Of a DNA stretch of 62,075 bases, positions 37,912-61,493 are shown one piece after another. The first letter of the stretch is position 1. Each line of letters opens with the position of its first letter. The stretch comes from Spirochaetales bacterium (lineage in GTDB: Bacteria > Spirochaetota > Spirochaetia > JABEVK01). The stretch covers positions 1 to 62,075 of the forward strand of contig JBAXAI010000022.1 of the NCBI GenBank assembly GCA_037142615.1, written 5' to 3'. The translations under genes and the position numbers were made by a program. The notes beneath the pieces are model-generated. The model was not told the DNA's origin. It saw only the letters and a list, made by a program, of their open reading frames with translations, and ran no database searches.

Positions 37912-38961
37912 GTGCTGATCTTGCCTGAAGAAACACGAAGCGACGACATTTCGCTGGTCGATCTCATCCGGCCGCTGCACGAGCGCCGCCGCCTGCTGCT
38001 ATCGGCGGTCCTTCTGTTGGCGCTCGTTTGCTTGGGTTTTGCGCTGTGGACCGTGCTGGCGCAAGAGGCCAAGCAAACTCAAGCCTTCGTCGTCAAGCTG
38101 GCTCAACCGCTGGCGTTCAAGGATTTTCAGGATGTGGCCGCCCAGGTTGACAAGTCCTCGAACGGCATGTTGACAGTCGACTACAAACGCACGCCGCAGG
38201 ATCAGCGGTTTCCCAAGGGCAGAGACCCGTTTGAAGGCTACTTTGACGACAAAGGGCAATGGACGCAGGTGAGCCTTGACACCCTGTACTTTCAAGGACC
38301 GGCGATCGCTGCCTCGCTCAAGGCGACCCTGATCGAGTTTCAGACCCAGCGAGTGCTCACCAGGTTGATCGACGACCAGATCAAGCGGTACTCGGTGCCC
38401 CGAGACCTGGTGGGCCTGTTGCGCGCCGAGCAAAAAACGCAGGAACGTTTGGCCTTACTGGGGCAGTTTGAGGGCACCTACCCGTCGCTCATCCGTCCCA
38501 ACCTGACACTCAACGATCGCGTGATTCCTGTCGAGAGCCAAATCATGAGCGCGCAGCTCGAGCTGCAGAACTTGAAAGGCCAGCACAACGACATCGCTCT
38601 CGACGAGCTGCGCAGCGCGTACTATCAGGCCATTCTGGGCCTGCTCCGTGATTCGAAACTTTCACCCACCACCGCGATCGCCGTGGCCTACCAGACGGTG
38701 ATCGCCGGCACTACGGCCCCGCTCGCTCAGCAGTTGGCCAGCGAGCGCACCAACCTCGAATACTTCGTGGCCGACCGCACGGCAACAATTCCCGTGCTCA
38801 CCAGCGTGGTCGAGGTACACGTAGCCAAACCCTCGGTGACCAAGGAACTGGGACTGATTGCCGTCTGGTTTGCCGGGGGTCTGCTGGCGCTGCTGGTGGT
38901 CATTTATACTCTCGCCTTTGCAGCCCGCTTCCGCGCCAACTTGACAGCAAGCGACAGTTGA
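37912..38961 (+). CDS. Wzz-like polysaccharide co-polymerase / chain-length determinant
   Basis: DDISLVDLI, N- and C-terminal TM helices, coiled-coil-like middle; upstream of the glycan locus. Confidence 0.65.
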   Translation: MLILPEETRSDDISLVDLIRPLHERRRLLLSAVLLLALVCLGFALWTVLAQEAKQTQAFVVKLAQPLAFKDFQDVAAQVDKSSNGMLTVDYKRTPQDQRFPKGRDPFEGYFDDKGQWTQVSLDTLYFQGPAIAASLKATLIEFQTQRVLTRLIDDQIKRYSVPRDLVGLLRAEQKTQERLALLGQFEGTYPSLIRPNLTLNDRVIPVESQIMSAQLELQNLKGQHNDIALDELRSAYYQAILGLLRDSKLSPTTAIAVAYQTVIAGTTAPLAQQLASERTNLEYFVADRTATIPVLTSVVEVHVAKPSVTKELGLIAVWFAGGLLALLVVIYTLAFAARFRANLTASDS

Positions 38962-38979
38962 CTGGATACTCAGGGGCTG

Positions 38980-40134
38980 ATGAACTCCACGCCAACCCCC
39001 GAAACCCCGGCCTTGCCCCCCAACGACGAAATCTCTCTGGTCGACCTTGTGATGCCGCTGTACCGCCAGCGGCGTGTTTTGACCGTGGGCGCAATCGTAC
39101 TCGCGGCCGTGTGCCTCTTGGGCGCGCTGGCTTCTAGCTGGTATCAGCGAACCACGGCCGGCACCCAGTACAAGGTGAATCTGGCCGTCGGTATGGCCTA
39201 CGACGACTTTCAGGGTTTGCTCGGGTTTCAGTGGCCCGGACTGGGCACCTTGGGCCTTTCGTATCGCTCGGGCGACAAAGACCCCCGATACCCCACCGGC
39301 CACGACAGCTTTGCCGGCTATTACGAAGGCGGCAAACTGGTGCAAACCGAAGTTGACTCACTGACCGTCAGCGCGACAGCCGGAACACCCTTGGCCTTGC
39401 AAGACTTTCTGGTCAAAGAACAGACCTTCAAGGCTGCGAACGATGCCATCCGCGGCAAGTTGGCGGAAGTGGCGAGTCCCGGCCCGGCGGCCAAGCTCAA
39501 TGTGGTCGACCTGATCCGCGGCCTGCAGAAAATCGAAGACAAGCTGGTGCTGCTCAAGGGCTTCCAGGCCACCTACCCGTCGCTCATCCGGTCGAACCTG
39601 ACGCTCAACGACAAGGTGGTGCCCGTCGAAACGCAGATCATGGACGCCGAACTCGCGCGCAAGGGGCTCAAGGAGTCACTCGACGACCTCGCCCTGCAGC
39701 GAGTCATCCAGCACTTCTACCGCGCCATTCCCGATCTAGCCGACCCAGTGCCCGAACTGCTCAAGCACCTGCGCGACAAGACCCTCGACATGCCCGACCT
39801 GCAAACCGGCCTGACGGCCCGCGTGTCGCAAGCCTACGAGCGCACCATCGCCGAATTCAACTTCACCGAGACCCAGACAGACTTGTCGCCGACCCAGCTC
39901 AAGGCCTACATCGCCAGCGAACGCGATAACCTGGAGCGCACCCTGCGCGACCAGATCAGCGCCATTTCGCTGCAAACCACCATTGTGGAATAGGGCATTG
40001 TCTCGAGTTCCAGCGAGGCGTTCAAAACCGCCGGGTTGGCGTTTGTGGGAGGGCTGTTCCTGCTGGTGGTGCTGGTGTACCTGCGGCACTTTTGGGGCAC
40101 CATCCGCGACAAGCTGGGCGCGCAGCCGACCTAG
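38980..40134 (+). pseudogene. Second Wzz-like paralogue interrupted by an in-frame TAG at 39991-39993
   Basis: DEISLVDLV; shares TYPSLIR.NLTLND.V.PVE with paralogue 1; reading through the TAG gives the missing C-terminal TM helix ending at TAG 40132-40134. Confidence 0.65.
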
Positions 40135-40207
40135 GTCATGACCAGGCAAGACGTCGACCGAAGTGGCGCTAACTCGCCAGCCCGCACCGTGGTGGAGTAG
40201 TTTCCCC

Positions 40208-40252
40208 TTTACAAACCGCCGGACTGCGGTATAGTGTTCAATGATTGAACAC
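40208..40252 (+). promoter_or_regulatory. Promoter with overlapping palindromic operator
   Basis: TTTACA-16 nt-TATAGT, then GTGTTCAAT-G-ATTGAACAC (40234-40252). Confidence 0.7.
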
Positions 40253-40361
40253 ACGACCCTTGCCACCCCACCGGGTGCAGTTCGTTACGGCGGCGCACAC
40301 GGGGCAAACGGAACGTTTTCAAAAAATCCCTTCCCCCGGGAAGGACTCGTCACACCGTGCC

Positions 40362-40874
40362 ATGAATACCCCCCCGCCCGACAAACATATTTCGCTCCTT
40401 GAGCTCCTCAAAACCCGCCCCGACGCTGCCCAGCGCGACATGGCCGAAGCCGTGGGCCTGTCGCTGGGCATGACCAACCTGCTGCTCAAGCAGCTCGCCG
40501 AAAAAGGCTGGATGCTCATCCGCAAAGGCAACGCGCGCAACGTGCAGTACGTGCTCACCCCCGAAGGGCTCACCGAGCTCAGCCGACGCAGCCTGCGCAC
40601 GCTCAAGCGCACCATCCGCAGCGTGGCCGACTGCCGCGTGCAGCTCGAGGGCTTGGTGAACCAGGTAAAGCGCGACGGCTACCCCGGGCTCGAACTGCGC
40701 GGCAGCAGCGAGCTCGACTTTGTGCTCGAGTTTCTGTGCGGTAAACACGGGCTCGGCTTTGCGCACAACGCTAACCGCGAGGGTTGGTTTGTGGTGCACG
40801 GCGAAGACGAAGCCGCCGAACCGAATGTGATGAGCTACATGGAAGCCAAGCTGGTGCCCGAGGCCGTGGGGTGA
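40362..40874 (+). CDS. Winged-helix (MarR-type, EPS-locus-associated) transcriptional regulator
   Basis: AQRDMAEAVGLSLGMTNLLLKQLAEKGW, YVLTPEG; first gene of the glycan operon. Confidence 0.85.
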   Translation: MNTPPPDKHISLLELLKTRPDAAQRDMAEAVGLSLGMTNLLLKQLAEKGWMLIRKGNARNVQYVLTPEGLTELSRRSLRTLKRTIRSVADCRVQLEGLVNQVKRDGYPGLELRGSSELDFVLEFLCGKHGLGFAHNANREGWFVVHGEDEAAEPNVMSYMEAKLVPEAVG

Positions 40875-41134
40875 ACGCCCAGCAGCAAACTTGGGTCAGC
40901 GAACTCAGCCCAACGCTTTTTTGGGACGCTGACCGAGCTACCCTGGACGCCCAGCAGCACCTCAAAACGATCCTCGAGCGCGTGCTCGAGCGCGGAACCT
41001 GGCAGGACTGGTCGCTGGTGGCTGCCAACGTCTCGAAGGCCGAGATGCTCGGCATGCTGCCGCGGCTCCGTGTTCCCCCCCGGGAGCTGAACTTTGTGAA
41101 GATGTTTCTGGACAAGGATGATCTCGCACCATAG
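40871..41134 (+). CDS. DUF6922-like putative antitoxin
   Basis: LSPTLFWDAD..LD....ILERVLERGTWQDW; directly upstream of AbiEii. Confidence 0.75.
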   Translation: MNAQQQTWVSELSPTLFWDADRATLDAQQHLKTILERVLERGTWQDWSLVAANVSKAEMLGMLPRLRVPPRELNFVKMFLDKDDLAP

Positions 41135-41741
41135 CGTCAAGCCGGCACTTTTGGCCCTCTTGAGAACGTTCATGAGCCACAACGAGCTGGCCGAGTTCGT
41201 CCTCGTTGACGACACATCCCTCGGGCTCCGCTACGGGTACCGCGAGTCTGACGACATCGACCTGTTCTGCCACCCGGGTTTCGACCCGCAACGGCTGCGC
41301 GACATACTCGAAGCCTCTTTTCCGGGAATCAGCATCACCAGCGTCAGCGGTCCCGGAGTTTTCGCCAATCTTGACGGCGTCAAAGTCGACTTCGTCAAAC
41401 ATCCGCAGGCCTGGTTGGAACCGCACGAAACCCTCGACGGAATCCGGATGGCGTCCCTGCAAGACGTGTCGGCGATGAAAATCAATGCCGTCATCGGCCG
41501 AGGCTCCAAGAAGGACTTCTCGGATCTGCTTTTTCTGCACGAAAACGGCCTCGTGCTGAGCCAGTCGCTCCGCAACTTCGAGCTTAAGTACGGCAACAGT
41601 CTGCTGTTCGCGGCCATTCGGAGTTTGGGGTACTTTGACGACACCCGGGGAACCGCAGACCCGCTGTACCTCAACGGCTGGACCTGGGAAGAAGTGCAAC
41701 GCAAAATGACCGTTCTCGCGAAACAAGCGGCAAGCAAGTAA
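41118..41741 (+). CDS. AbiEii/AbiGii-family nucleotidyltransferase toxin (motif degenerate)
   Basis: LVDDTSLGLRYGYRESDDIDLF, VKVDF, AMKINAVIGRGSKKDFSDL. Confidence 0.8.
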   Translation: MISHHSVKPALLALLRTFMSHNELAEFVLVDDTSLGLRYGYRESDDIDLFCHPGFDPQRLRDILEASFPGISITSVSGPGVFANLDGVKVDFVKHPQAWLEPHETLDGIRMASLQDVSAMKINAVIGRGSKKDFSDLLFLHENGLVLSQSLRNFELKYGNSLLFAAIRSLGYFDDTRGTADPLYLNGWTWEEVQRKMTVLAKQAASK

Positions 41742-41756
41742 TAGGGATACCAATTG

Positions 41757-42158
41757 ATGGAGTCCGACGTCCGCTGGCTTCAGCGCCTGGAAAACTTCGA
41801 AAAAGCCGTTGGCACCCTCGGTAAGGTTCTCGACAAACCAGAGCTCGACGTGTACCAAAGGGCCGGGCTGATTCAGTTCTTCGAAATGTCCTTTGAGCTG
41901 GGTTGGAACGTGCTCAAGGACTACTTGGAGCACCAGGGGATCGCCGACGTTGGCACACCGCGGGCGGCCGTCAAAAAAGCCTTCGAAGTCGGTTTGATTG
42001 CCGACGGCCGCCAATGGCTCAAGGGACTGGAAGACCGGAACCTGACCTCGCACACGTACAACGAAGCTGTCGCCGACCGGGTGGTCGACTTGGTTCGCGA
42101 CTCGTACTTTCCTCTTTTTCAGGAACTCCTCAACACCATGGCAGCAAAAAAGGCATGA
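41757..42158 (+). CDS. HEPN protein, HI0074 / nucleotidyltransferase substrate-binding family
   Basis: RWLQRLENF, GLIQFFEMSFELGWNVLKDYL, DRNLTSHTY. Confidence 0.9.
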   Translation: MESDVRWLQRLENFEKAVGTLGKVLDKPELDVYQRAGLIQFFEMSFELGWNVLKDYLEHQGIADVGTPRAAVKKAFEVGLIADGRQWLKGLEDRNLTSHTYNEAVADRVVDLVRDSYFPLFQELLNTMAAKKA

Positions 42159-42475
42159 ACATTCCCGGCCTCAGCGAGCTCGACCTTTCCGACGTCAACC
42201 AGGCCTTTCTGCAGGTACCGCAAGTCGAAAAAGCCGTGTTGTTCGGCAGCCGGGCCAAAGGAACCGCCAAACGGGGCAGCGACGTCGATCTGGCCTTGTG
42301 GGGCAAGGCACTCGACCGGAGCGCGCTGGTCGACCTGAGTGTTCTGCTCAACCAAGAAGGGTGCTTACCGTATCAGTTTGATCTCGTCGACTTTGAAACC
42401 GTCGACAACCCGGCCCTCAGGGAACACATCGAACGCGTCGGCATCGTGGTTTATGAGAAAGGTATGACCAAATGA
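42155..42475 (+). CDS. MNT nucleotidyltransferase (HI0073-like)
   Basis: LFGSRAKGTAKRGSDVDLAL, LPYQFDLVD, LREHIERVG. Confidence 0.9.
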   Translation: MNIPGLSELDLSDVNQAFLQVPQVEKAVLFGSRAKGTAKRGSDVDLALWGKALDRSALVDLSVLLNQEGCLPYQFDLVDFETVDNPALREHIERVGIVVYEKGMTK

Positions 42476-43488
42476 CCAACCTTATCCTGTGCGGTGGCTC
42501 TGGCACCCGCCTGTGGCCGCTGAGCCGGCCTGAGATGCCCAAGCAGTTTTACCCCTTGTTTGCGGGGCGCAGCCTTTTTGAGATGACGGTGGACCGCAAT
42601 AAGGCGCTGGCCGACCACTTTTACGTGGCCAGCAACCAGCTGCAGATGGGGCTGGCGACAGCCCAGCTGGCCAAGTGCGGCGTCACCAAGTTTGGCAGTC
42701 TGGTCGAGCCCGTGGGCCGCAACACCGCTCCGGCCATCGCGCTGGCATGTATGGCTTTGGTGGCGACGGGCAAGGCCGACGAGCTGGTGTTGGTCACCCC
42801 CAGCGACCACCTGATGACCAAGCCTGCCGACTATGAGCGCGCCGTGAAACGCGCGGGCGAGTTGGCCGCCCAAGGTTATCTGGTGACCTTTGGCATCGCA
42901 CCCACGTACGCCGAAACTGGATTTGGGTACATCGAGGCCCGGGGCGAAGACGTGGTCAGCTTCCGCGAAAAGCCCGACCAGGCCACCGCCGAGGGGTACC
43001 TGCGCAGCGGCAAGCACTTTTGGAACAGCGGCATGTTTGTGTTCCGCGCCGGGGTGTTCTTGGCCGAACTGCAAAAGCATTCGCCCGAAGTGTACCGCAC
43101 CTGTGCCGCCGTAACCAGCGTGACGCGCGAGGCCATGATGGCAATCCCCGCCATCTCGATCGACTACGCCGTGATGGAAAAGACCGCCTTGGCCAAAGTG
43201 GTGGCCAGCGACCCTGGGTGGAGCGACCTGGGGAGCTTCGACGCGCTGTACGACGAAGTGGTGCCGCGCACCGATGGCAACCGGGTGCTGGGTGCTGGCG
43301 AGCCGGTCTTTGTCGAATCGTCGGGCAACCTGGTGGTGACCAGTGGCCGCCAGGTGGCGCTGGTGGGCGTGACCGACCTGCTGGTGGTCGACTCGCCCCA
43401 TGGCTTGCTGGTAGCTCGCCGGGGTGCCAGTCAGAGTGTCAAAGAAGTGTCTTCAAGATTGCAGTCCAGCGGGAGTTCGAATGCCTAG
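42472..43488 (+). CDS. manC: Mannose-1-phosphate guanylyltransferase
   Basis: ILCGGSGTRLWPLSR..PKQF, EPVGRNTAPAI, FREKP, WNSGMF, WSDLGSF. Confidence 0.95.
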   Translation: MTNLILCGGSGTRLWPLSRPEMPKQFYPLFAGRSLFEMTVDRNKALADHFYVASNQLQMGLATAQLAKCGVTKFGSLVEPVGRNTAPAIALACMALVATGKADELVLVTPSDHLMTKPADYERAVKRAGELAAQGYLVTFGIAPTYAETGFGYIEARGEDVVSFREKPDQATAEGYLRSGKHFWNSGMFVFRAGVFLAELQKHSPEVYRTCAAVTSVTREAMMAIPAISIDYAVMEKTALAKVVASDPGWSDLGSFDALYDEVVPRTDGNRVLGAGEPVFVESSGNLVVTSGRQVALVGVTDLLVVDSPHGLLVARRGASQSVKEVSSRLQSSGSSNA

Positions 43489-44731
43489 ACTTCGTGTCGT
43501 GAACTTCGGCCCCATTCGGGGGGGACTGCTAGAAAACGACGGATGGATCGATTTCTCCCGTGTCATGCTTTTCGTCGGCAACCAAGGCTCAGGAAAAAGC
43601 ACCGTCGCCAAGTTGTTCTCGACTTTTTCGTGGATCGAAAAAGCCCTTGTAAGGGGAGACTACGACCAACGTTGGTTCGGGCGAAAGAATCGACTCAGAA
43701 CGCAGTTTTTGAAATACCATCGACTTGAGAACTTTCTTGAGCTGGACGGCACCGACAAAGCCACCATCGAGTACGAGGGTGATGCCTATGCCATTCACTA
43801 CGCTCAAGGCCAAATGACAATCAGTGAGCGGACATCGGGCTCCTACCACCTGCCTCAGGTGCTGTACGTGCCAGCAGAACGCAACTTCCTTGCCTATGTC
43901 AGAAATCCTCAGGGGCTTAAGCTCGTATCCGATGCCCTCAAGGAATTCGTCACTGAGTTTGAAAACGCGAAGCTTAGCATCAGGAACGCGGTTAACCTGC
44001 CGATCAACGGCGCGGAACTCGAGTACGACAAACTCAACGACCTTCTGAATGTCCGGGCCCCCGGCTACAAATTGCGATTGACCGACGCTTCGAGTGGTTT
44101 CCAGTCGTTTGTCCCGCTCTACTTGGTATCAAAGCACCTCGCCGATACCGTGCAACAACACGCTGAAGCGGTCAACGATACCATGAGCGCCGACGAACTG
44201 GAGCGGTTCAAGGCCGGGGTTGCGAGCATCTTTTCGAACGAATCGTTGACCGAAGAGCAGAAACGCGCCGCGATCTCGGTGTTGTCCTCCCGGTTTAACA
44301 AAACAGCGTTTGTCAACATTGTCGAAGAGCCCGAACAGAACCTTTTCCCTTCGTCTCAGTGGGCGGTTCTGCAGTGTCTGCTAGAGTTCAACAACCAGAC
44401 AAAACACAACCGGCTGGTGATGACTTCTCACAGTCCTTACATCGTCAATTTCCTCAGTATCGCAGTGCAGGGGCAAGAGCTCTCCAGGAAGATCGAATCT
44501 GTACGCCCTGGCGACAAAACCCTGCTCAACCGGCTTGACGGCGTTGTGTCGCGTGGGGCTTTGGTTGATGGAAGCCAGGTTTCGATTTACCAGCTGGATG
44601 AGGATGCCGGAACAATCCGACGCCTCGAATCGAGCGATGGCTTTCCGAGCGAAAGGAATTACCTGAACGACTCCTTGCGGGAGGGTAATCGGCGGTTTGA
44701 TGAGCTCCTGGAAATCGAAGGTGAGCTTTAG
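43481..44731 (+). CDS. ABC-type ATPase, AAA_15/AAA_21-like (defence/TA-associated type)
   Basis: GNQGSGKST, YVPAERN, ASSGFQS, IVEEPEQNLFP, MTSHSPY; no permease partner. Confidence 0.85.
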   Translation: MPRLRVVNFGPIRGGLLENDGWIDFSRVMLFVGNQGSGKSTVAKLFSTFSWIEKALVRGDYDQRWFGRKNRLRTQFLKYHRLENFLELDGTDKATIEYEGDAYAIHYAQGQMTISERTSGSYHLPQVLYVPAERNFLAYVRNPQGLKLVSDALKEFVTEFENAKLSIRNAVNLPINGAELEYDKLNDLLNVRAPGYKLRLTDASSGFQSFVPLYLVSKHLADTVQQHAEAVNDTMSADELERFKAGVASIFSNESLTEEQKRAAISVLSSRFNKTAFVNIVEEPEQNLFPSSQWAVLQCLLEFNNQTKHNRLVMTSHSPYIVNFLSIAVQGQELSRKIESVRPGDKTLLNRLDGVVSRGALVDGSQVSIYQLDEDAGTIRRLESSDGFPSERNYLNDSLREGNRRFDELLEIEGEL

Positions 44732-44732
44732 C

Positions 44733-45218
44733 ATGGACTTTTTCCAGGCGGCTTGCCAAACGGGACCGCATTTGGCGCCGGTTTTTGGGCTTTGCGATGA
44801 CAGGCATGGTGGTGTCGCGTACGTTGATTCTTCGGTTCCTGAACGATGGATCGCCACCGTCAAAAACCCCTCAGGGAATGCCGTTGAATTCACCGCCATC
44901 GATAAGTGCGTCATCCGCGACGGTGAGTACCAAGAGCGGGGACGTTGCGATGGCATGCTAACCGTGCCCGGGCTGCTCTACCTTGTCGAACTGAAGGACA
45001 AGGATCCGCCGTGGCAGAGCCTCGCGATCGAGCAGCTCGTTTCGACCATTGAGTTCCTTAAGCAGCACCATGATCTGAGGCCCTACAAGCGCAAAAAGGC
45101 TTTTGCGTGCAACAAGCGAAAGCCCGCTTTCGTTGAAATTGATCACGAGACCAACCGGAACTTCTATCGGCAACATGGCTTTCGCCTCGATATGCAAGCG
45201 ACGATTGTGGTCATCTAG
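44733..45218 (+). CDS. Hypothetical protein with PD-(D/E)xK-like motif
   Basis: FTAIDKC...RCDGML....LYLVELKD...AIEQL; 1 nt after the ATPase stop. Confidence 0.7.
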
Positions 45219-45232
45219 GAGAAGGAACCCCA

Positions 45233-46105
45233 ATGAAAGGCATCATTCTTGCCGGCGGAGCCGGCACCCGGTTGTTCCCTGCGACCCGTGTGGTTTGCAA
45301 ACAGCTCTTGCCGGTGTACGACAAACCCATGATCTATTACCCTCTGAGCACGCTCATGCTGGCGGGAATCCAAGAGATTCTGGTGATCAGCACGCCCGCC
45401 GACACGCCCCGCTTCCGCGACCTGCTAGGCGATGGCTCCGACTTGGGCCTCAAGTTGCAGTATAAGGTGCAAGACGTGCCCAACGGCCTGGCGCAGGCTT
45501 TTGTGTTGGGCAAGGAATTCATTGGCAACGATTCGGTGTGCTTGGTGCCCGGCGACAACATTTTCTTTGGTCACGACTTTTCGAAGTTGCTGGCCAACGC
45601 CAAGGCTCAGAAGAGCGGCTCCACCGTGTTTGGCTATCAAGTGGCCGACCCGCAACGTTACGGCGTGGCCGAGTTCGACAAGACGGGCAAGGTGCTGTCG
45701 ATCGAAGAGAAGCCCACCCAGCCCAAGAGCAACTTTGCGGTGGTCGGGCTGTACTTCTACGACAACCAGGTGGTCGACATCGCCACCAACCTGAAGCCCT
45801 CGGCCCGGGGCGAGTACGAGATCACCGACGTGAACCGCGAGTACCTGCGGCGAGGTGCGCTGCAGGTGGAACTGATGGGCCGGGGTTTTGCTTGGCTCGA
45901 CACCGGTACCCACGAAAGCCTGGTCGACGCCACCAACTTTGTGAAGGCCATCGAGGACCGCCAAGGGCTGAAGATTGCGTGCATTGAAGAGATCGCCTAC
46001 CGCCAGGGCTTTATCGACCGTGCGCAGTTCCTCAAGTTGGCCGAAGCGCTCAAAAAATCCACCTACGGTGAGTACCTGTTCCGGGTTGCTCACGACACCC
46101 AATAG
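45233..46105 (+). CDS. rfbA: Glucose-1-phosphate thymidylyltransferase, copy 1
   Basis: [46 protein letters not shown]. Confidence 0.96.
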
Positions 46106-46106
46106 A

Positions 46107-46667
46107 ATGCCCGCTTCGTTTACGCCCGGACCGCTTGCGGGCTTGGTGATCATCCAGCCGCGCGTTTTCCCCGACGGACGGGGCAGTTTTTTCGAGACGT
46201 ACAAGCAAACCGAGTACGCGTCCAACGGGGTCGCCGACGCCTTCGTGCAAGACAACCACAGCGTCAGCACCCAGGGTGTGCTCCGGGGTTTGCATTTTCA
46301 GAACCCGCCGTTTGTGCAGGGCAAGCTGGTCCGCGTGATCCAGGGGTGCGTGTGGGATGTAGCGGTCGATCTTCGCCCGGAAAGCCCCACGTTTGGCCGA
46401 TGGTTTGGGCTGGAGCTCAGTGCTGAGAACCGGACTCAGTTCTATATTCCCGCGGGTTTTGGCCACGGGTTTGTCACTCTCAGCGAGACGGCGGAGTTTG
46501 TGTACAAGTGCACTGCCGAATACAACAAGGCCAGCGAAGGCGGGGTAAGGTGGGACGACCCGACCCTCGGCATTGCCTGGCCCTTGGCGGGGCTCGAGGT
46601 TTCCGTTTCGGACAAGGAGGCCGCGCTGCCGTTCCTTGAACGCCCCGAGTTGAAGGGCGCGCATTGA
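46107..46667 (+). CDS. rfbC: dTDP-4-dehydrorhamnose 3,5-epimerase, copy 1
   Basis: DGRGSFFE, FVQDNHS, GVLRGLHFQ, QGKLVRV, DVAVDLR. Confidence 0.95.
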   Translation: MPASFTPGPLAGLVIIQPRVFPDGRGSFFETYKQTEYASNGVADAFVQDNHSVSTQGVLRGLHFQNPPFVQGKLVRVIQGCVWDVAVDLRPESPTFGRWFGLELSAENRTQFYIPAGFGHGFVTLSETAEFVYKCTAEYNKASEGGVRWDDPTLGIAWPLAGLEVSVSDKEAALPFLERPELKGAH

Positions 46668-47851
46668 TCCGACGAATGGCCATCGACAACTTCAAATCTC
46701 TGGTCGGTTTTGAGCTGCCAAAGTACCCCGGCTCGCTGCCATCCTTTGTGTGCCTCACGGGACTCAATGGCGCAGGCAAGACGGCCCTATTGCAGGCCTT
46801 TGACTTTCTGGCTCAGCTGACCCGCGGACAGATGAAGGCTTGGCTGGTGACTAGAGACTGGAAAGCCTCGGAGCTAAAAAGCAAGTTCAGCAAGCTCCAA
46901 ACCATTGCCTTCTCGCTCGAGATCGATTTGGGTGAACAAGGTGGTGTCGTTGTCTGGTCGGGTTCTTATAATGTGGCCCAGAGCCGCTGCACCTCAGAAT
47001 CGCTCAAAAGGGACGGCCTCGCGCTGTTCGAGCTCTCCGAAGGGCTGTTGACCTTCCTTGATCGAAAAGCCAACAAGGCGACCCAGTTGTCGGTTTCCGC
47101 TTTGGTTTACGAAGGTTCTGTGCTCACGTTGGTTAGCCTGTCCCAAGTGGCACCAGCCATCGAAGGATTTGTCCGGTTCATGCGGGGCCTCAAATCGCTC
47201 GAGCTTCTTTCGCCCCATTTGATCCGGCGGAGGTCCAAGGAATCGGCTGACGTTGGCTATGGCGGTGAAAAGCTCTCTGGTTTTTTGCACGCCCTGAGCC
47301 CGGAGCAGAAAGGTCGGCTCCAACAGAAGCTCCACCAGTTCTATCCAAGGCTTTCGGCCGTAGAAACCACGGGACTTCGCGCGGGCTGGAAGAATCTTTC
47401 AGCAGTTGAAAAGTTTGATGGGGGTACGCAAGGGCTCGTTGCCGTTGAAACCGACGCCAGGCACCTCAACGATGGAATGCTAAGAATCCTCGCCATCTTG
47501 GCTCAAGCCTACTCAGACCACCCGGTCGTTCTTCTCGATGAAATAGAAAACGGAATCAACGCCGAGCTCACGGGCGAGCTTGTTGCGGCGCTTCTCGAGC
47601 TCGCAGCTTCAGGAAAACAGATCATCGTCACCACCCACAGCCCCATGATTCTCAACTGGCTGACCGAGGCTCAAGCAGGCGAGTCGGTGTTTTACCTTTA
47701 CCGAACTTCTGCGGGACACACTAAAGTGCAGCGGTTCTTTGATTTTCCCGGTGCAAGGCAGGACCTTTCCCTCTTGGGCCCTGGCGAGGTCTTTGCGAAC
47801 ACTTCGCTTACCGAGGCGGCACAGTTTTTCGCCAGCCAAGGATCCCTGTGA
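46664..47851 (+). CDS. ABC-type ATPase, AAA_21-like (defence-associated type)
   Basis: IDNFKSL, GLNGAGKT, LNDGMLR, LLDEIENGIN, IVTTHSP. Confidence 0.85.
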   Translation: MIRRMAIDNFKSLVGFELPKYPGSLPSFVCLTGLNGAGKTALLQAFDFLAQLTRGQMKAWLVTRDWKASELKSKFSKLQTIAFSLEIDLGEQGGVVVWSGSYNVAQSRCTSESLKRDGLALFELSEGLLTFLDRKANKATQLSVSALVYEGSVLTLVSLSQVAPAIEGFVRFMRGLKSLELLSPHLIRRRSKESADVGYGGEKLSGFLHALSPEQKGRLQQKLHQFYPRLSAVETTGLRAGWKNLSAVEKFDGGTQGLVAVETDARHLNDGMLRILAILAQAYSDHPVVLLDEIENGINAELTGELVAALLELAASGKQIIVTTHSPMILNWLTEAQAGESVFYLYRTSAGHTKVQRFFDFPGARQDLSLLGPGEVFANTSLTEAAQFFASQGSL

Positions 47852-48585
47852 TACTGGTGCTTTCCGGTGAAGGGAAGACGGACTTGGGACAGAACGACCC
47901 GACGCCCACGGGGCTCCGCTACCGCCCCGGCGCAATGGCATTAATTGTCGACCAGCTTGTCGTCGAGTTGACAGGCGATTCGCCACGGTTTGACCAAGAA
48001 TACGCCGATGAAGCACGAGCGTGTTTCATCGGTGAAGGCCAGCTGTCCAGGTTCAAACCACCGAAAGGGCAGGCTAAGTTCTTCCGAGGCCGCAAGTCGC
48101 ACCTTCACGCGCCTATGGCGCGACTCCTTGGTTACGCGGCCCAAAAAGTGGAGCACGAGACCGGCGAAACGACCGTCGCCGTCTTTTTTCGTGATTGCGA
48201 CGGAACGCAGTCGTCGTCACGTACCGAGTGGCAGGATAAGTTCGACTCCATCAAGGCGGGATTTCGCCTCGCCGGCTATTCTTCCGGAGTTCCTATGCTG
48301 CCCAAGCCAAAGTCGGAAGCGTGGTTGCTGTGCGCCCTCAAAGACCCGGCGTACCAGCACTGTGGTGCGCTCGAGGATGCTTCCGGCAACGATGCAAGCC
48401 CGAACTCCCTCAAAAAGCGACTTCAGTCCGTTCTCGAGAGTCGGACACAGGAAGACGTTGAAAACCTCGTCCGCGAGGGGAAAATCCGCGGGCTTTCGAT
48501 CGACATGCCGAGCTTTCGGGCTTTTCAGACGGAACTGGAGACCAAGGTGGTTTCGGCTGTGGCAAAGGAAAAGGGTAACTCATGA
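47848..48585 (+). CDS. Hypothetical protein, TOPRIM/DUF4276-like
   Basis: N-terminal LSGEGKTD, FFRDCD (DxD), SEAWLL; GTGA coupling to the ATPase. Confidence 0.7.
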   Translation: MILVLSGEGKTDLGQNDPTPTGLRYRPGAMALIVDQLVVELTGDSPRFDQEYADEARACFIGEGQLSRFKPPKGQAKFFRGRKSHLHAPMARLLGYAAQKVEHETGETTVAVFFRDCDGTQSSSRTEWQDKFDSIKAGFRLAGYSSGVPMLPKPKSEAWLLCALKDPAYQHCGALEDASGNDASPNSLKKRLQSVLESRTQEDVENLVREGKIRGLSIDMPSFRAFQTELETKVVSAVAKEKGNS

Positions 48586-49799
48586 TTTGGCTCGTAGGAG
48601 CCCGCGGCATGCTGGGCACAGACTTGGGTCGAGCGTTCAGCGCTGCGGGGCTGGATTGGGTGGGCACCGACCGCGAGGTCGACTTCACCGACCCCCAGGC
48701 TGTCGAAAACTTCGGTGTCGGCAAAGCCATCGACTGGGTGATCAACTGCGCCGCCTACACCGCCGTCGACAAGGCCGAGGACGAGCCCGAGCTGTGCCGC
48801 AAGCTCAACGTCGACGGGCCGGCGTGCCTGGCGCGCTGGGCGAGCGCTCACCGCGCGGCGCTGGTGCATATCTCGACCGACTACGTGTTCTCGGGGCAGG
48901 GCACCGTGCCCTACCGCGAAGACGATGCCGTGGCACCGCAAGGAATCTACGGCGTCACCAAGGCCGATGGCGAAAGGGCCATCCGCGACAGCTGCCCCCG
49001 CCACTACATTCTGCGCACCGCCTGGCTGTACGGCGTTGCCGGCCCGAATTTTATCACCACCATGCTCCGGCTGATGAACAGCAAAGACTCGCTGGGCGTG
49101 GTGGCCGACCAATGGGGAGCCCCGACGTGGACTCTTGACCTTGCCGCCGTCATCGTCGCGTTGATCCAAAAGGGTGGGGGCCAGTGGGGAACCTACCACG
49201 CCAGCGGCGAGGGCCAGTGCACGTGGCACGAGTTTGCCCTGGCCATTCTGCGCGAGGCCCAGGCGCGCGAGCTGGTACCACCCACCAAGGCTGTGACGGT
49301 GAATGCCCTGACCACCGACCAGTACCCCACCAAGGCCCAGCGCCCCGCGTGGTCGGTGCTGTCGAAAGACAAGCTAGATCGCGAGTTCGGGCTGAAAATG
49401 CCCGCGTGGCAAACCGGTTTGGTTGGGTTCTTGGATTCGTTGACGAACTATAGTGATGACCGCAGCACACTCCGGGAGCTGGCAGCGGCCGACCACGAGG
49501 TGATGCGCTTCTTGTTCGACTCCGGTCGGTATCTGTATGCCGTGCATTATTGCCAGCAGTCGTTGGAAAAGGCGCTGAAGGTGTTGGCAGCACTCTACCG
49601 GCCGCACCGCCGTTCCCACGACTTGGTGCAACTTGCCGAGGATGCTGCCGTGGCGCTCTCCCCCGAAGAGTTCAAGCTCGCGGAAGAGCTATCGGGCCAC
49701 TACCTGACCGGCCGCTACACGGAATCGTTGGCCGGAGTTGTCGATTCGAGTGAGGAACTATGGTTGCGCATCACCAAGCATCCAGCGTACTTCCTGTAG
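48582..49799 (+). CDS. rfbD: dTDP-4-dehydrorhamnose reductase fused in-frame to a C-terminal HEPN domain
   Basis: GARGMLG, INCAAYTAVDKAE, HISTDYVF, YGVTK, RPAWSVL; then YCQQSLEKALK..SHDLVQLA..GRY from about 49440. Confidence 0.88.
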   Translation: MIWLVGARGMLGTDLGRAFSAAGLDWVGTDREVDFTDPQAVENFGVGKAIDWVINCAAYTAVDKAEDEPELCRKLNVDGPACLARWASAHRAALVHISTDYVFSGQGTVPYREDDAVAPQGIYGVTKADGERAIRDSCPRHYILRTAWLYGVAGPNFITTMLRLMNSKDSLGVVADQWGAPTWTLDLAAVIVALIQKGGGQWGTYHASGEGQCTWHEFALAILREAQARELVPPTKAVTVNALTTDQYPTKAQRPAWSVLSKDKLDREFGLKMPAWQTGLVGFLDSLTNYSDDRSTLRELAAADHEVMRFLFDSGRYLYAVHYCQQSLEKALKVLAALYRPHRRSHDLVQLAEDAAVALSPEEFKLAEELSGHYLTGRYTESLAGVVDSSEELWLRITKHPAYFL

Positions 49800-50074
49800 T
49801 TCACGCCTTCTCGGCCCAGGTGAAGGGTTTGCCAGCGGTGCACCAGGTGTGGCTGTTCGGCTCCTGGGCGTACGGCAGTCCCGATGCTGAAAGCGATATC
49901 GACGTGGCCGTTGTCCTTTCCGATAGCGAGCCCGCGGCTGAGTTTGCCTTGCAGTCGTCGGCCCGCCTAGTTGATCGCCGCCTCGAAATCCATGGGTTTG
50001 CCCAGGCCGATTTCGACCGGGGACGCAGGGCGATCCTCCACGACATCAAGACCAAAGGGATTCGTATTCTGTGA
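49760..50074 (+). CDS. MNT nucleotidyltransferase
   Basis: WLFGSWAYGSPDAESDIDVAV, DIKTKGI; GAGGA RBS. Confidence 0.85.
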   Translation: MVAHHQASSVLPVVHAFSAQVKGLPAVHQVWLFGSWAYGSPDAESDIDVAVVLSDSEPAAEFALQSSARLVDRRLEIHGFAQADFDRGRRAILHDIKTKGIRIL

Positions 50075-50076
50075 AA

Positions 50077-50188
50077 AAGGCCGGGGGGCGCCAAGCCAGC
50101 CAGACCGCTCGTCTGGACTGACGCGCCCCCCGCCTTCGCCTCCTCGCGGCCAGGCCGCTGTGGGGGCTGCGGCTGCCCCGGGGGGCAA
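50077..50188. other. GC-rich multi-hairpin intergenic element
   Basis: CGGGGGGCGC (50082-91) pairs with GCGCCCCCCG (50123-32), inner CCAGAC/GTCTGG, plus GCGGC-CAG-GCCGC and further G/C stems. Confidence 0.6.
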
Positions 50189-50209
50189 TCAAGCACCAAG
50201 GAGTCTTCC

Positions 50210-50368
50210 ATGACTTACACGGCGCTCATCAAACAAGTTGACCAAGTTTGGATTGGTTGGATCGAAGAAATTCCCGGTGTCAATTGTCAAGAAGACACCC
50301 AAGAAGACCTGATTGAGACACTGGGTATCACGCTCAAAGAAGCCGTCCTATTCGTCGGCAATGACTGA
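50210..50368 (+). CDS. Orphan, short HicB-family antitoxin (52 aa)
   Basis: Read manually: MTYTALIKQVDQVWIGWIEEIPGVNCQEDTQEDLIETLGITLKEAV; AAGGAG RBS; no HicA adjacent. Confidence 0.75.
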   Translation: MTYTALIKQVDQVWIGWIEEIPGVNCQEDTQEDLIETLGITLKEAVLFVGND

Positions 50369-50398
50369 ACACGCAGCGTCGTTGTTAAAGGAAACCAA

Positions 50399-51271
50399 AT
50401 GAAAGGCATCATTCTTGCCGGCGGAGCCGGTACCCGACTCTACCCGGCCACCAGGGTGGTCTGCAAACAGCTGCTTCCGGTTTACGACAAACCCATGATC
50501 TACTACCCGCTGAGCACGCTCATGTTGGCGGGGATCCAAGAGATTCTGGTGATCAGCACACCGGCCGATACGCCACGTTTCCGCGAGTTGCTGGGCGATG
50601 GTTCGGACTTGGGACTGAAGTTGCAGTACAAAGTGCAGGACGTGCCCAACGGGCTGGCGCAGGCTTTCGTGCTGGGCAAAGAGTTCATCGGTAACGACTC
50701 CGTTTGCCTGGTCCTCGGCGACAACATTTTCTTTGGTCATGACTTTTCGAAGCTCTTGGCGAATGCCAAGACCCAGAAAACCGGCGCAACGGTTTTTGGC
50801 TATCAGGTAGCCGACCCGGAACGCTATGGTGTGGCTGAGTTTGACAAGACGGGCAAGGTGCTCTCGATTGAAGAGAAACCTGCCCAACCGAAGAGTAATT
50901 TCGCCGTAGTTGGGCTGTACTTCTACGACAATCAGGTGGTCGACATTGCCGTCAACCTCAAACCTTCGGCCCGAGGCGAGTACGAGATCACCGACGTGAA
51001 CAGGGAGTACCTGCGGCGTGGTCAACTGCAAGTGGAACTGATGGGCCGAGGCTTTGCCTGGCTCGACACCGGTACCCACGAAAGCTTGGTCGACGCCACC
51101 AACTTCGTCAAAGCCATCGAAGACCGGCAGGGGCTGAAGATTGCCTGCATCGAAGAGATCGCGTACCGTCAGGGCTTTGTTAACCGGGCTGAGTTTCTCA
51201 AGTTGGCCGAGGTTCTAAAAAAATCCACCTACGGTGAGTACCTGTTCAGGATCGCTCACGACACCGAATAA
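50399..51271 (+). CDS. rfbA: Glucose-1-phosphate thymidylyltransferase, copy 2
   Basis: Protein nearly identical to copy 1, with intact LVLGDNIF. Confidence 0.96.
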
Positions 51272-51272
51272 C

Positions 51273-51821
51273 GTGCTTGGGTCATTTGCTCGTGGACCGA
51301 TACTTGGCCTAGTTGTCATCCAGCCCCGAGTATTCCGTGACGGTCGGGGAAGCTTTTTCGAGACGTACAAACAGTCCGAGTACGCAGCCAACGGAGTCGC
51401 CAGCACGTTCGTTCAGGATAACCACAGCACCAGTACCCGGGGAGTACTTCGTGGGCTGCATTTTCAGAACCCGCCCTTTGCTCAGGGCAAGTTGGTGCGA
51501 GTGATCCAAGGAGCCGTGTGGGATGTTGCTGTCGATCTCCGCCCGGGTTCCAGCTTCGGCGAATGGTTTGGCCTGGAGTTGAGCGCTGAAAATCGAACTC
51601 AACTCTATATACCAGAAGGTTTTGCCCACGGATTTGTCACCATCAGTGAATCGGCAGAGTTTGTTTACAAGTGTACCGCCGAATACAACAAGGCCAGCGA
51701 AGGCGGGATAAGGTGGGACGACCCTTCAATCGGTATCGACTGGCCCTTGGCGGGTTTTGAAGTCTGCGTTTCGGAAAAGGACGCTGTTCTTCCTTTTCTT
51801 GCGGAAGTGGGTAAGCGATGA
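51273..51821 (+). CDS. rfbC: dTDP-4-dehydrorhamnose 3,5-epimerase, copy 2
   Basis: Same motifs as copy 1; GTG start at the equivalent position. Confidence 0.93.
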   Translation: MLGSFARGPILGLVVIQPRVFRDGRGSFFETYKQSEYAANGVASTFVQDNHSTSTRGVLRGLHFQNPPFAQGKLVRVIQGAVWDVAVDLRPGSSFGEWFGLELSAENRTQLYIPEGFAHGFVTISESAEFVYKCTAEYNKASEGGIRWDDPSIGIDWPLAGFEVCVSEKDAVLPFLAEVGKR

Positions 51822-51998
51822 TCCGGATTGCGGAGCCAGAAATTTGTTGAGAACCCACGTCGGGTGGACGTTCAGCGTTGTGAATCTGGCGTGGATTGGA
51901 TGCGACATAAAGTCAACTTTGCGGAAGCCAGAAGAGACTGAAGAGACTAGAAACAAAGGGATTCGCGTACCGTGGCCGAAACAAATCAAGGAGTTTGC

Positions 51999-53114
51999 AT
52001 GCCGAAAGTTGCCCTCATCACAGGTATAACCGGACAGGATGGAGCATATCTCGCGGAACTATTGCTGGGAAAAGGTTACATCGTTCATGGAATCAAGCGG
52101 CGTTCGAGCCTGTTTAACACCGACCGTATCGATCATCTTTTCCATGACCCGCATGAGGACGGCGTGAAGTTCTTCCTTCATTTTGGAGACATGACAGATG
52201 GGAGCAATCTTGTCCGTATCATTCAAGAAACGCAGCCAGATGAAATCTATAACTTAGCGGCAATGAGCCACGTCGCGGTGAGTTTTGAGACTCCCGAATA
52301 CACAGCCAACGCCGACGGTGTAGGCACCTTGCGCCTTCTCGAAGCTGTTCGGATCCTTGGATTGGAACAAAGAACGCGGATTTATCAGGCCAGCACTAGC
52401 GAGCTTTATGGGAAGGTCCAAGAAATCCCTCAGAAGGAAACGACTCCATTCTACCCACGTAGTCCTTACGCTGTCGCTAAACTCTACGCCTACTGGATTA
52501 CGGTCAACTACCGCGAGGCGTACGGCATCTTCGCATGTAACGGGATCCTTTTCAATCACGAGAGTCCGATCCGCGGCGAGACTTTTGTCACTCGCAAAAT
52601 TACCCGAGCTGCTGCGCGCATCGCATTGGGAATGCAGGAGAAGCTGTACCTGGGCAACCTCAGCAGCAAGCGTGACTGGGGGCATGCCAAGGATTACGTG
52701 CGAATGATGTGGATGATCCTCCAGGCCGAGAAAGCCGAAGACTGGGTCATTGCCACAGGCGTGACCACCGAGGTCCGATCATTTGTCCGAATGGCCTTCC
52801 AAGAAGTTGGAATCGAGATTGAGTTCCGTGGCGAAGGGATCCATGAGAAAGCGTTTGTACTTCTCTGCAGCAACCCAAAGTTCCAAGTCCCTGTTGGCCA
52901 AGAGGTCGTGTCCGTCGATGCCGCTTATTTCCGACCGACTGAAGTGGATCTGTTGGTTGGTGACTCAACCAAGGCTCGAACTAAGTTGGGTTGGAATCCA
53001 GAATACACCTTGGAATCTCTCGTCAAGGAAATGATGGAGAGTGACGTGGCTCTGATGAGCAAGGAACTCCACATCTCCGATGGCGGCTACCGGATCAACC
53101 GGTACCACGAGTAG
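51999..53114 (+). CDS. gmd: GDP-mannose 4,6-dehydratase
   Basis: [50 protein letters not shown]. Confidence 0.97.
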
Positions 53115-53118
53115 AACC

Positions 53119-53520: not shown

Positions 53521-53547
53521 ACAATGACAGAAATCAAGGAGATACGC

Positions 53548-57771: not shown

Positions 57772-57831
57772 GAAAGCTGCAGTTCAACCCGGTTTTTGGC
57801 CGGTCGCAGCAAAGATCGTTAGGAGTTGTGC

Positions 57832-59079: not shown

Positions 59080-59103
59080 CGGGCGGAATCAAAGGAAACT
59101 GTC

Positions 59104-61417: not shown

Positions 61418-61493
61418 GTGCTCGACTGGTTGCCCTTCGCCCATTTGGGATCGAACCGGGTGTCACGATGTCTAGATAAACGGAGATCATATA

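Follow-up and report, generated by a model that had tools for sequence, protein, structure and literature searches.

The locus described here raises the question of how genes for nucleotide-sugar synthesis came to alternate, in one orientation, with toxin–antitoxin (TA) and defence-like modules, and of whether the mixture works as a single system. It lies in the genome of a Spirochaetales bacterium (NCBI GenBank assembly GCA_037142615.1, contig JBAXAI010000022.1), of which a stretch of 62,075 nucleotides (nt), hereafter the window, was analysed. The genes manC, rfbA, rfbC and rfbD of this freshwater spirochaete form the nucleotide-sugar part that heads a large surface-polysaccharide locus, and gene pairs of other kinds stand between them. 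These pairs are probably independent two-gene selfish or defence cassettes that were inserted at the stop/start junctions of the sugar operon, in the operon's orientation. The four cassettes proposed to have been inserted are a DUF6922 protein with an AbiEii-like nucleotidyltransferase (NTase), a HI0074-type HEPN with an MNT nucleotidyltransferase, and the candidate defence pairs PDC-M29 and PDC-M25; an RmlD enzyme fused to a HEPN domain, together with its own MNT, would be the fifth unit. Two features are new: the setting, in that the modules join a biosynthetic operon seamlessly through overlapping stop and start codons, and the RmlD–HEPN/MNT unit, which recurs elsewhere. The genes are as follows (aa, amino acids; ORF, open reading frame).

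40245–40874, + strand: MarR/wHTH-type regulator, head of the operon (Pfam HTH_24 8.9e-6, MarR 8.6e-5)
40871–41134, + strand: DUF6922 protein, 87 aa (Pfam PF21956 1.8e-14)
41118–41741, + strand: AbiEii-like nucleotidyltransferase (Pfam PF08843 5.2e-9; PADLOC AbiEii 3.6e-7)
41754–42158, + strand: HEPN1, HI0074/NTase_sub_bind type, HepT-like (Pfam PF08780 1.6e-37)
42155–42475, + strand: MNT1 nucleotidyltransferase, MntA-like (Pfam Polbeta 2.3e-15)
42472–43488, + strand: manC, mannose-1-phosphate guanylyltransferase, native operon gene (Pfam NTP_transferase 1.8e-46 and ManC beta-helix)
43478–44731, + strand: PDC-M29A, ABC/AAA_15-type ATPase (PADLOC PDLC04562 3.4e-178, whole profile)
44733–45218, + strand: PDC-M29B, small PD-(D/E)xK-like protein (PADLOC PDLC04564 7e-69)
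45233–46105, + strand: rfbA/rmlA, copy 1 (NCBIfam TIGR01207, 492 bits, above cut-off)
46107–46667, + strand: rfbC/rmlC, copy 1 (NCBIfam TIGR01221, 223.7 bits, above cut-off)
46664–47851, + strand: PDC-M25A, ABC/AAA_21-type ATPase (PADLOC PDLC04541 4.3e-128; Pfam AAA_21 1.4e-23)
47848–48585, + strand: PDC-M25B, TOPRIM-like signature (PADLOC PDLC04546 2.6e-70)
48582–49799, + strand: RmlD fused in frame to a C-terminal HEPN (RmlD_sub_bind 2.9e-97; HEPN PF05168 3.9e-10)
49760–50074, + strand: MNT2 nucleotidyltransferase (Pfam Polbeta 5.5e-8)
50210–50368, + strand: 52-aa ORF, HicB/UPF0150-like (Pfam UPF0150, E 0.028, sub-threshold)
50388–51821, + strand: second rfbA–rfbC copy, context outside the interleaved stretch

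Pfam, PADLOC and NCBIfam agreed with the gene order, domains and co-orientation given in the first-pass annotation, and placed every real gene between 40.2 and 50.4 kb on the + strand. With starts taken from profile alignments, the tight packing that had been described up to the last MNT was also borne out. All six 4-nt stop/start overlaps were exact: GTGA at 40871 (MarR stop/DUF6922 GTG start), ATGA at 42155, at 42472 (MNT1 stop/manC start) and at 48582 (PDC-M25B stop/rfbD start), TTGA at 46664 (rfbC stop/PDC-M25A start) and GTGA at 47848. The remaining junctions up to MNT2 are overlaps of 11, 17 and 40 nt, the last placing the MNT2 start inside the 3′ end of the RmlD–HEPN gene, or gaps of 1, 1, 12 and 14 nt. 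Beyond MNT2 the gaps widen to 135 and 30 nt. No transposase or integrase domain was found in the 15 + strand ORFs scanned against the three databases, as had been stated before, and a repeat search turned up neither direct nor inverted repeats at the flanks of the cassettes; all it returned was the paralogy of rfbA/rfbC and some short matches that look like chance.

Probable cassette pairs at stop/start junctions

In genome G002, which belongs to the same genus, the gene order is dnaX-ybaB-recR-MarR-manC-glycosyltransferases, and the TGA of the MarR gene overlaps the GTG of manC as GTGA. At this very point the window carries 1.6 kb comprising DUF6922, AbiEii, HEPN1 and MNT1, with GTGA as the left border and ATGA as the right border, and the insert ends in eight bases (ATGACCAA) that repeat those with which manC begins. 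Nucleotide identity to G002 is 82% for the MarR gene and 79% for manC. Together, G002 and the window show the MarR|manC site in its empty and its filled state, with an overlap retained at each of the two new junctions. A second genome of the genus, G004, has the order recR-MarR-three sugar genes-manC, with no TA module there. The relatives differ in what stands at MarR|manC, and the earlier proposal that the gaps between sugar genes serve as cassette slots is supported for this lineage and, with the nine of 79 loci described below, as a tendency of the class. When the 10-kb DNA was compared with 30 related genomes, matches were confined to MarR, manC, rfbA/C, rfbD and small parts of AbiEii, HEPN1/MNT1 and the 52-aa ORF.

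The AbiEii-like gene scored 36.8 bits with PF08843, above the cut-off of 22.5 bits, and a second DUF6922+AbiEii pair, 47–51% identical, is present on contig C3 of the same genome. We presume, by analogy with AbiE, that DUF6922 is the antitoxin-like partner of the toxin-like NTase. The AbiEi antitoxin consists of a winged-helix domain plus a C-terminal domain. The DUF6922 protein had no AbiEi match in Pfam, PADLOC or NCBIfam, and DUF6922 was not mentioned in the literature searched. As far as the available text on the AbiE type IV TA/abortive infection system goes (PMC3985639), the likeness lies in an AbiEii-family (DUF1814-type) NTase within a bicistronic, overlapping pair, whereas the upstream partner here is an 87-aa DUF6922 protein and not a two-domain AbiEi.

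HEPN1 passed the cut-off of TIGR01987 in NCBIfam with 102.5 bits, and MNT1 scored 48 bits with MntA_antitoxin, under the NCBIfam cut-off of 60 bits. In type VII systems a growth-inhibiting HEPN toxin is neutralised by the MNT through AMPylation. The HEPN toxin motif is Rx4-6H, which the R-N-L-T-S-H stretch of HEPN1 fits. The MNT catalytic signature, G-S...D-x-D, is present in MNT1 as LFGSRAKG...SDVDLAL. Judged from the accessible parts of two reports on the type VII HepT/MntA system (PMC7641770, PMC11586414), both HEPN-containing units of the window resemble it in pairing a HEPN with an adjacent MNT that keeps G-S...D-x-D, and HEPN1 further in its Rx4H stretch and in passing the HI0074 cut-off. 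They differ from it in that HEPN precedes MNT, in that both pairs sit inside a sugar operon with stop/start overlaps, and in that the HEPN of the second pair is the C-terminal domain of RmlD and belongs to a family without a conserved Rx4-6H arginine. A further HI0074-type HEPN and MNT pair was noted elsewhere in the window's genome, directly after the gene for the small subunit of ribonucleotide reductase (G000:C5:124055-125768).

The PADLOC search that had been suggested earlier identified both ATPase pairs, as the candidates PDC-M29 and PDC-M25. The A and B proteins match their profiles end to end in PDC-M29 (1-nt gap between the genes) and over full length in PDC-M25 (4-nt overlap), and secondary PADLOC matches of the two ATPases were to AriA, GajA, HEC-01A, AbiLi and PtuA. 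Neither PDC-M29B nor PDC-M25B had a Pfam match. The labels “PD-(D/E)xK-like” and “TOPRIM-like” that had been given to them fit the invariant motifs, while the fold searches gave weak matches only. In PDC-M29B (model pLDDT 96), D73, E86 and K88 are invariant among 50 homologues, and the fold matches, mostly PD-(D/E)xK nucleases, were all below Z 8: McrC at Z 5.5 (root-mean-square deviation, rmsd, 3.8; 107 residues aligned), FokI at Z 5.3, NucS, Can2 and HamA. In PDC-M25B (model pLDDT 88), E8 and D116-x-D118 are invariant among 30 homologues. Its fold is a generic alpha/beta one, the best, weak match being lumazine synthase (Z 7.3, rmsd 4.4, 144 aligned), and comparison with the C-terminal regions of OLD gave Foldseek E values of 0.06–0.1 at a probability of only about 0.6. 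Neither protein had a match at Foldseek E ≤ 0.001 or at VIA Z ≥ 8. The arrangement recalls OLD, Gabija, PARIS/AriAB, AbiL and HEC-01/02, which also join an ABC-type ATPase to a TOPRIM or nuclease partner, with E...DxD in M25B and D...ExK in M29B; it differs in that the partners here have no Pfam family and their folds reach Z values of at most 7.3 and 5.5, respectively.

GC content at third codon positions (GC3) of the PDC genes is 0.64–0.67, corresponding to the 6th–10th percentile of 2050 long ORFs (M29A, 0.65, 8th; M25A, 0.64, 6th), and no part of either pair had a DNA match in the 30 related genomes. Their best homologues are only 48–54% identical and are spread over many phyla; PDC-M25B had 562 homologues at E ≤ 0.001, the closest 48% identical, and PDC-M29B had 452 representative homologues. 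M25A adjoins M25B in 79 of 80 genome loci, the exception having only about 150 nt upstream, and rfbA, rfbC, rfbD, manC and gmd were found in none of the 80 within up to 10 kb on either side. M29A accompanies M29B in 72 of 79 metagenome loci (the window's own DNA excluded), and the five sugar genes were again found in none, although the contigs are often short, at least 5.5 kb being present in 38 of the 80 loci kept (metagenome contig L100 included). PDC-M25 and PDC-M29 are autonomous pairs without a general tie to sugar genes.

The usual hosts of these pairs are BREX and type I restriction-modification (RM) operons; here the host is a sugar operon. Both neighbours of PDC-M25 are co-oriented with it in 28 of the 48 loci that have at least 2.5 kb on both sides, and 12 of these 28 have a BREX neighbour (PglX, PglZ or BrxC) and 19 any PADLOC match at E ≤ 1e-20. 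In four unrelated genomes (L050, L060, L069, L071) PDC-M25 stands between PglX upstream and PglZ downstream. PDC-M29 lies directly upstream of a type I restriction (R) gene in three of 20 loci, accompanied by a specificity gene upstream in L102 and L119 and by a PDC-M07B gene in L131. We also noted PDC-M25 just upstream of BrxC in L027, L038 and L041, with a PDC-M28C gene before it in L038 and L041. According to the part of Payne et al. (bioRxiv 10.1101/2024.01.29.577857) available to us, the 145 PDCs were picked for their position inside BREX, DISARM or type I RM systems. The pairs in the window are likewise embedded in a co-oriented operon, and differ from those in that part of the account (10.1101/2024.01.29.577857) in that the host operon makes sugar precursors and is no defence system.

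The junctions leave no room for intergenic promoters. A promoter scan found three candidates against 2.7 expected in shuffles, and terminator-like sites showed no excess (20 against 17.8 expected). A TTTACA-16-TATAGT element at 40208–40235 is a lead only, because the scan performed no better than shuffles. Contigs from two metatranscriptome runs matched DUF6922/AbiEii, HEPN1, manC, PDC-M29A, rfbC1, PDC-M25B and rfbD at 99–100% identity, and one RNA-library contig of 348 nt crosses from MarR into DUF6922, reaching 77 and 270 nt to the two sides of that junction. Co-transcription of the stretch is weakly indicated by these data.

TA families between rfb genes

Junctions between rfb genes were surveyed in 251 genomes of the class. 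rfbC was found in 85 of them, giving 92 loci in which rfbA, rfbB, rfbC and rfbD were mapped by tblastn; 79 loci had at least one co-oriented rfb pair and together contained 200 junctions, with a median gap of 26 nt and 39 gaps of more than 300 nt in 26 loci. The Pfam scan covered 78 of 89 gap ORFs, leaving out nine in two gaps of 4.6–4.9 kb at L201 and two of less than 55 aa. TA-family domains (HEPN, MNT, PIN, ParE, HicA, antitoxin) occurred in 13 of the 200 junctions, in nine of the 79 loci and in eight families. The nine TA-bearing loci belong to G005, G047, G075, G049, G203, G249, G184, G226 and G068; HEPN and/or MNT is present in seven of them, and the others carry PIN, ParE, HicA or Unstab_antitox. 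The set of modules differs between genomes. DUF4143/AAA_14 ATPases, on the opposite strand, were found in three class loci (L013:5764-7008, L195:8931-10214, L222:5776-6975), one of which had nothing else, and the other gaps held sugar, transferase or transport genes, or ORFs without a match.

The gammaproteobacterial class that contains Pseudomonas was used as a control, with two unpublished genomes excluded. rfbC was found in 89 of 151 genomes, and the best 80 of 102 places yielded 69 loci with 184 junctions, a median gap of 41 nt and 17 gaps of more than 300 nt; 29 of 34 gap ORFs were scanned, five of at most 75 aa being left out. A TA set was present in one junction of one locus (TacA, GNAT and HicB between rfbC and rfbD). 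The excess in the spirochaete class corresponds to a Fisher P of 0.002 for junctions and 0.02 for loci, values that treat related, non-independent genomes as independent. Within the window's genome there are 14 MNT-type genes, two of them in the operon's approximately 13 junctions (P ~0.001 under uniform placement, a rough model). No account of TA modules inside rfb operons was found in the literature searched. Two other features of the control set were noted: a protein of the 23S-rRNA-intervening-sequence family (PF05635, 1.1e-32) between rfbB and rfbA at L344:4521-4865, which was left unclassed, and rfbC matches inside frames of 300–539 aa (G326:C26:51079-51585, G337:C34:199944-200456, G355:C2:645391-645897), which may be fusions or read-through.

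Under the cassette reading, each module would act alone. By analogy with HepT/MntA and AbiE, the NTase would neutralise or partner the toxin, and the PDC ATPase–nuclease pairs would act in abortive or nucleolytic defence. The cassettes would be read through from the operon promoter, as there is no intergenic room for promoters of their own. Overlaps of 4 nt would persist because insertions that preserve coupling spare the essential sugar genes downstream, and addiction by the TA pairs may help both the pairs and an exchange-prone locus to persist. Superintegron cassettes and genomic islands are also stabilised by TA modules. A comparable case is an integrative and conjugative element (ICE) stabilised by SezAT and AbiE (PMC11062541); from the available part of that report, the likeness is that small TA pairs scattered in a variable, horizontally exchanged region could hold the region, and the difference is that the host here is a chromosomal biosynthetic operon that has neither integron nor ICE machinery.

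Several points weigh against this interpretation. TA pairs usually have their own autoregulated promoters, which could sit inside the upstream genes. The short RNA-library contigs fall in 13 and 7 of 30 bins (the 17 and 23 empty bins being no sign of silence), give neither transcript extent nor strand, and may include DNA carry-over. GC3 of DUF6922/AbiEii and HEPN1/MNT1 is near-native (0.72–0.77), so that for these two pairs insertion is inferred mainly from one empty site; the PDC-M29 slot (manC|rfbA) has no empty-site comparator, and the PDC-M25 slot can be compared only with the tight rfbC|rfbD junctions that relatives have in general. The TA excess rests on one control class and on ORFs called by a simple rule, with 11 of 89 and 5 of 34 gap ORFs unscanned. 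Toxicity, neutralisation and phage protection are ascribed to the modules by analogy, and in the accessible part of Payne et al. (bioRxiv 10.1101/2024.01.29.577857) PDC-M25 and PDC-M29 rank as candidates only.

The first-pass annotation had read the stretch as one undescribed system in which receptor synthesis and immunity are linked. In this form the MarR-type regulator would co-deploy a change of receptor glycan together with immunity, and the ensemble would have been selected as a unit. The co-orientation of all genes, with overlaps, behind one regulator fits such a design, as do the higher frequency of TA pairs between rfb genes in the class than in the control and the presence of a MarR homologue near rfb clusters in nine of 92 class loci. 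However, the modules are autonomous and of known kinds, PDC-M25 and PDC-M29 occur elsewhere without sugar genes (0/80 and 0/79 loci), same-genus relatives retain the regulator and the sugar genes without the modules, and the module set varies by genome, which is expected from opportunistic insertion and not from a selected ensemble. The one-system claim is therefore not supported, and we regard joint deployment as unlikely.

The RmlD–HEPN protein and its MNT

The fifth unit differs from the other four in that its HEPN is part of a sugar enzyme. The protein contains RmlD at residues 2–287 (310.8 bits with NCBIfam rmlD, above cut-off) and a PF05168 HEPN at residues 298–382. In-frame RmlD–HEPN fusions were also found at L182 (G047), L189 (G075), L194 (G049) and L220 (G249), in three families, and at all four loci an MNT gene whose start lies within the end of the fusion gene comes next, and then rfbB. 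Including the window, the MNT overlaps the fusion gene by 31–40 nt in five of five loci. MNT2 is 30–49% identical to the post-rfbD MNTs of L182, L189, L194, L220 and L222, and G-S...D-x-D is invariant in six homologues, every one of which follows rfbD. We presume, again by analogy, that MNT2 is the cognate partner of the fused HEPN.

Used as the sole query, the window's HEPN region retrieved only the window's own protein, owing to a word-index limit, and a profile of five HEPN tails was used instead. Searched against longer proteins, it returned 21 matches, of which 16, the window's own included, were RmlD+HEPN proteins of 396–431 aa; three 267-aa MNT-HEPN fusions were also returned, as distant relatives. 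One of the 16 is labelled plain “dTDP-4-dehydrorhamnose reductase” by one source. In all 16, YxxxK (Y114, K118) and STDYVF of RmlD are invariant, and so are many HEPN positions, including H337-D338-L339 and three tyrosines. No arginine is conserved 4–6 residues before H337 across the 16; two residues before the histidine stands R or K, and the window has R-P-H-R-R-S-H. The solved HEPNs closest to the fused tail are 1wol, 1ufb and 1o3u, none of them with a known function. The window's tail is the most divergent of the family (27–33% identity) and has a shortened C-terminus; its similarity to the fused tails (E down to 2e-16) still exceeds that to the stand-alone HEPN on contig C27 of the window's genome (E 1e-5).

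RmlD–HEPN/MNT is a small recurrent family. No account of the fusion was found in the literature searched, and the HEPN survey PMC3710099 makes no mention of polysaccharide, rhamnose, lipopolysaccharide, glycosyl or epimerase. In the portion available to us of a report on fused MNT–HEPN modules, FhepTA (PMC13000451), a HEPN of a TA pair is likewise fused to another domain, but the fusion partner there is the antitoxin itself, whereas here it is the metabolic enzyme RmlD and the MNT is a separate gene. The fusion was found in five of 251 class genomes, where it is detectable only if rfbC anchored the locus. In a sample of the phylum, 102 of 401 genomes carry this HEPN type, the unfused forms being stand-alone ORFs of about 130–150 aa; among the 150 matches listed, a frame of more than 390 aa was seen in the window's own genome only; a further 44 matches lie outside that list. 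Degenerate forms exist, with a broken HEPN start and an MNT at L215 and an MNT alone at L222, and at L013 the RmlD stops and an HI0074-family HEPN follows in the same frame. A quick RmlD tree, used only to show that the fused forms are not one tidy clade, scattered them and placed the window with unfused RmlDs of the same family, L222 and one fused database protein. One gain followed by losses is possible, and so are several gains. A 758-aa frame with RmlD (111–401) and RmlB/GDP_Man_Dehyd (411–727), possibly an RmlD–RmlB fusion, was noted in a same-genus genome (G001:C34, L016:1074-3350).

Two functional roles were considered for this unit. In the first, RmlD–HEPN and MNT would couple surface-sugar synthesis to a HEPN effector, and rfb junctions in spirochaetes would be a preferred, selected home of HEPN–MNT pairs that guard or sense the phage-receptor pathway. 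The MNT would hold a HEPN RNase in check through nucleotidylylation, with the state of the rhamnose pathway as the gate, and what is sensed could be enzyme oligomerisation, the level of a nucleotide-sugar or ATP, or phage interference with glycan synthesis. We consider this coupling unlikely.

In the second, the unit would be no TA pair at all but a domesticated regulatory device that tunes dTDP-rhamnose synthesis, either through nucleotidylylation of the HEPN tail by the MNT or through binding of a nucleotide to the tail. Such a role would agree with the recurrence of the fusion (16 clusters of 396–431 aa and four further genomes in three families), with the invariance of RmlD catalytic residues and of many HEPN positions, with the unconserved Rx4-6H arginine and with an overlapping MNT at every one of the five loci. 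It is at odds with the unfused HEPNs of the same family, which are ordinary stand-alone ORFs in 102 of 401 phylum genomes, with the divergence and shortened C-terminus of the window's own HEPN, and with the scatter of the fused RmlDs on the quick tree; the remnant at L215 and the lone MNT at L222 look like the decay of a selfish module. We give domestication slightly less credence still than the coupling; the unit may be an addiction module, a regulator or a sensor.

Origin of the block and its surroundings

Polysaccharide loci are known as hot spots of exchange, and the whole 40.9–50.4 kb block might have arrived as one island that brought its own rfbA, rfbC and rfbD, which would explain the duplicate rfbA–rfbC. 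The second copy is 82.9% identical to 45222–46618 over 1400 nt; the two rfbA copies differ at 16 of 291 aligned positions, with 97 of 126 nucleotide differences at third codon positions. It is, however, the sugar genes of the interleaved part that look native. GC3 is 0.81 in manC and 0.80 in rfbA1, 0.80–0.81 with rfbD added and 0.77–0.81 over manC, rfbA1, rfbC1 and rfbD (about the 75th percentile), whereas it is 0.72 and 0.56 in the second rfbA and rfbC and 0.49–0.72 over the polysaccharide run from 50388 to 62075. The lower values from the second rfbA–rfbC onward suggest that the downstream cluster, and not the interleaved part, was acquired horizontally. MarR–manC is moreover syntenic with G002 at 79–82% nucleotide identity, the RmlD groups with RmlDs of its own family (63% identity to that of L013), and no integrase, transposase or flanking repeats were found. 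Acquisition of the block as a single island is accordingly very improbable.

The joins themselves were recovered from DNA of two other studies. Contigs of run X2 at 99–100% identity bridge HEPN1-MNT1-manC (41872–42823) and M29A-M29B-rfbA (44326–45778), and contigs of run X6, at the same identity, bridge manC-M29A (43265–43992) and lie in the M25A-M25B region (47574–48026); the M25A-M25B join is bridged in both. An assembly or binning chimera, conceivable for a metagenome-derived draft of 76 contigs and in view of the fact that L100, near-identical to 39120–52300, may derive from the same data, is excluded for practical purposes, because contigs from independent studies cover the sugar/module joins. 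In run X2, contig joints from 40867 to 44189 (with 40 other letters) and from 46008 to 51483 skip parts of the stretch. They were not accepted as deletion variants: the sides measure 21 letters or the depth is about 2, and other organisms or the rfbA/rfbC paralogy may explain them.

The regulator at the head of the operon has its likely true start at ATG 40362, according to protein alignment with the G002 orthologue. It scored 8.1e-16 and 58 bits with MarR_EPS (NCBIfam TIGR04176), short of the curated cut-off of 88 bits, and is linked to sugar genes in same-genus G002 and G004. The RmlA, RmlC and RmlD equivalogs (TIGR01207, TIGR01221 and TIGR01214) all pass their NCBIfam cut-offs. No rfbB lies within the stretch; the genome's copy, on contig C61, is 71% identical to the RmlB of G002. 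At C61:4836-7792 it stands beside a possibly broken rfbC-like gene whose match falls into three separate pieces, and a second rfbD of the genome is split across the ends of contigs C53 and C26.

At the other end of the stretch, the 52-aa ORF reached 14.8 bits with UPF0150 (cut-off 27.3 bits) and had no match in PADLOC or NCBIfam; the 135-nt spacer before it showed no ORF of HicA size. Judged by this sub-threshold similarity, it is possibly a HicB/UPF0150-like remnant.

Upstream of the operon the order is gyrA, add, parB, an MNT gene, dnaX, ybaB, recR and two Wzz-like membrane proteins. The MNT gene, at 34319–34729 between parB and dnaX, is the third of the window. The membrane proteins (37912–39993, between recR and MarR) are paralogous, about 340 aa each and Wzz-like by position; neither had a Pfam match at E ≤ 0.01, and both are missing at that place in G002. 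Downstream follow the second rfbA–rfbC, gmd, a DegT aminotransferase, a MurJ-like flippase, a UDP-sugar dehydrogenase, an epimerase and a GT4 glycosyltransferase. FlaA (PF04620), which is not known outside the spirochaetes, had three matches in the window's genome and none in 14 control genomes, in keeping with a spirochaete, and the sequencing runs that contain the stretch are freshwater and lake metagenomes.

Taken with the preferred reading of separately inserted cassettes, the locus indicates that small TA and candidate defence cassettes, previously noted in defence operons, also embed in a housekeeping-like biosynthetic operon, where stop/start overlaps would let them do without promoters of their own while the downstream genes are spared. 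The MarR|manC junction provides a concrete empty-site/filled-site pair for studying cassette insertion, and the rfb operons of one bacterial class appear to be a recurrent home of HEPN–MNT pairs. The RmlD–HEPN family is a natural case in which to test the attachment of a type VII-like toxin to a metabolic enzyme.

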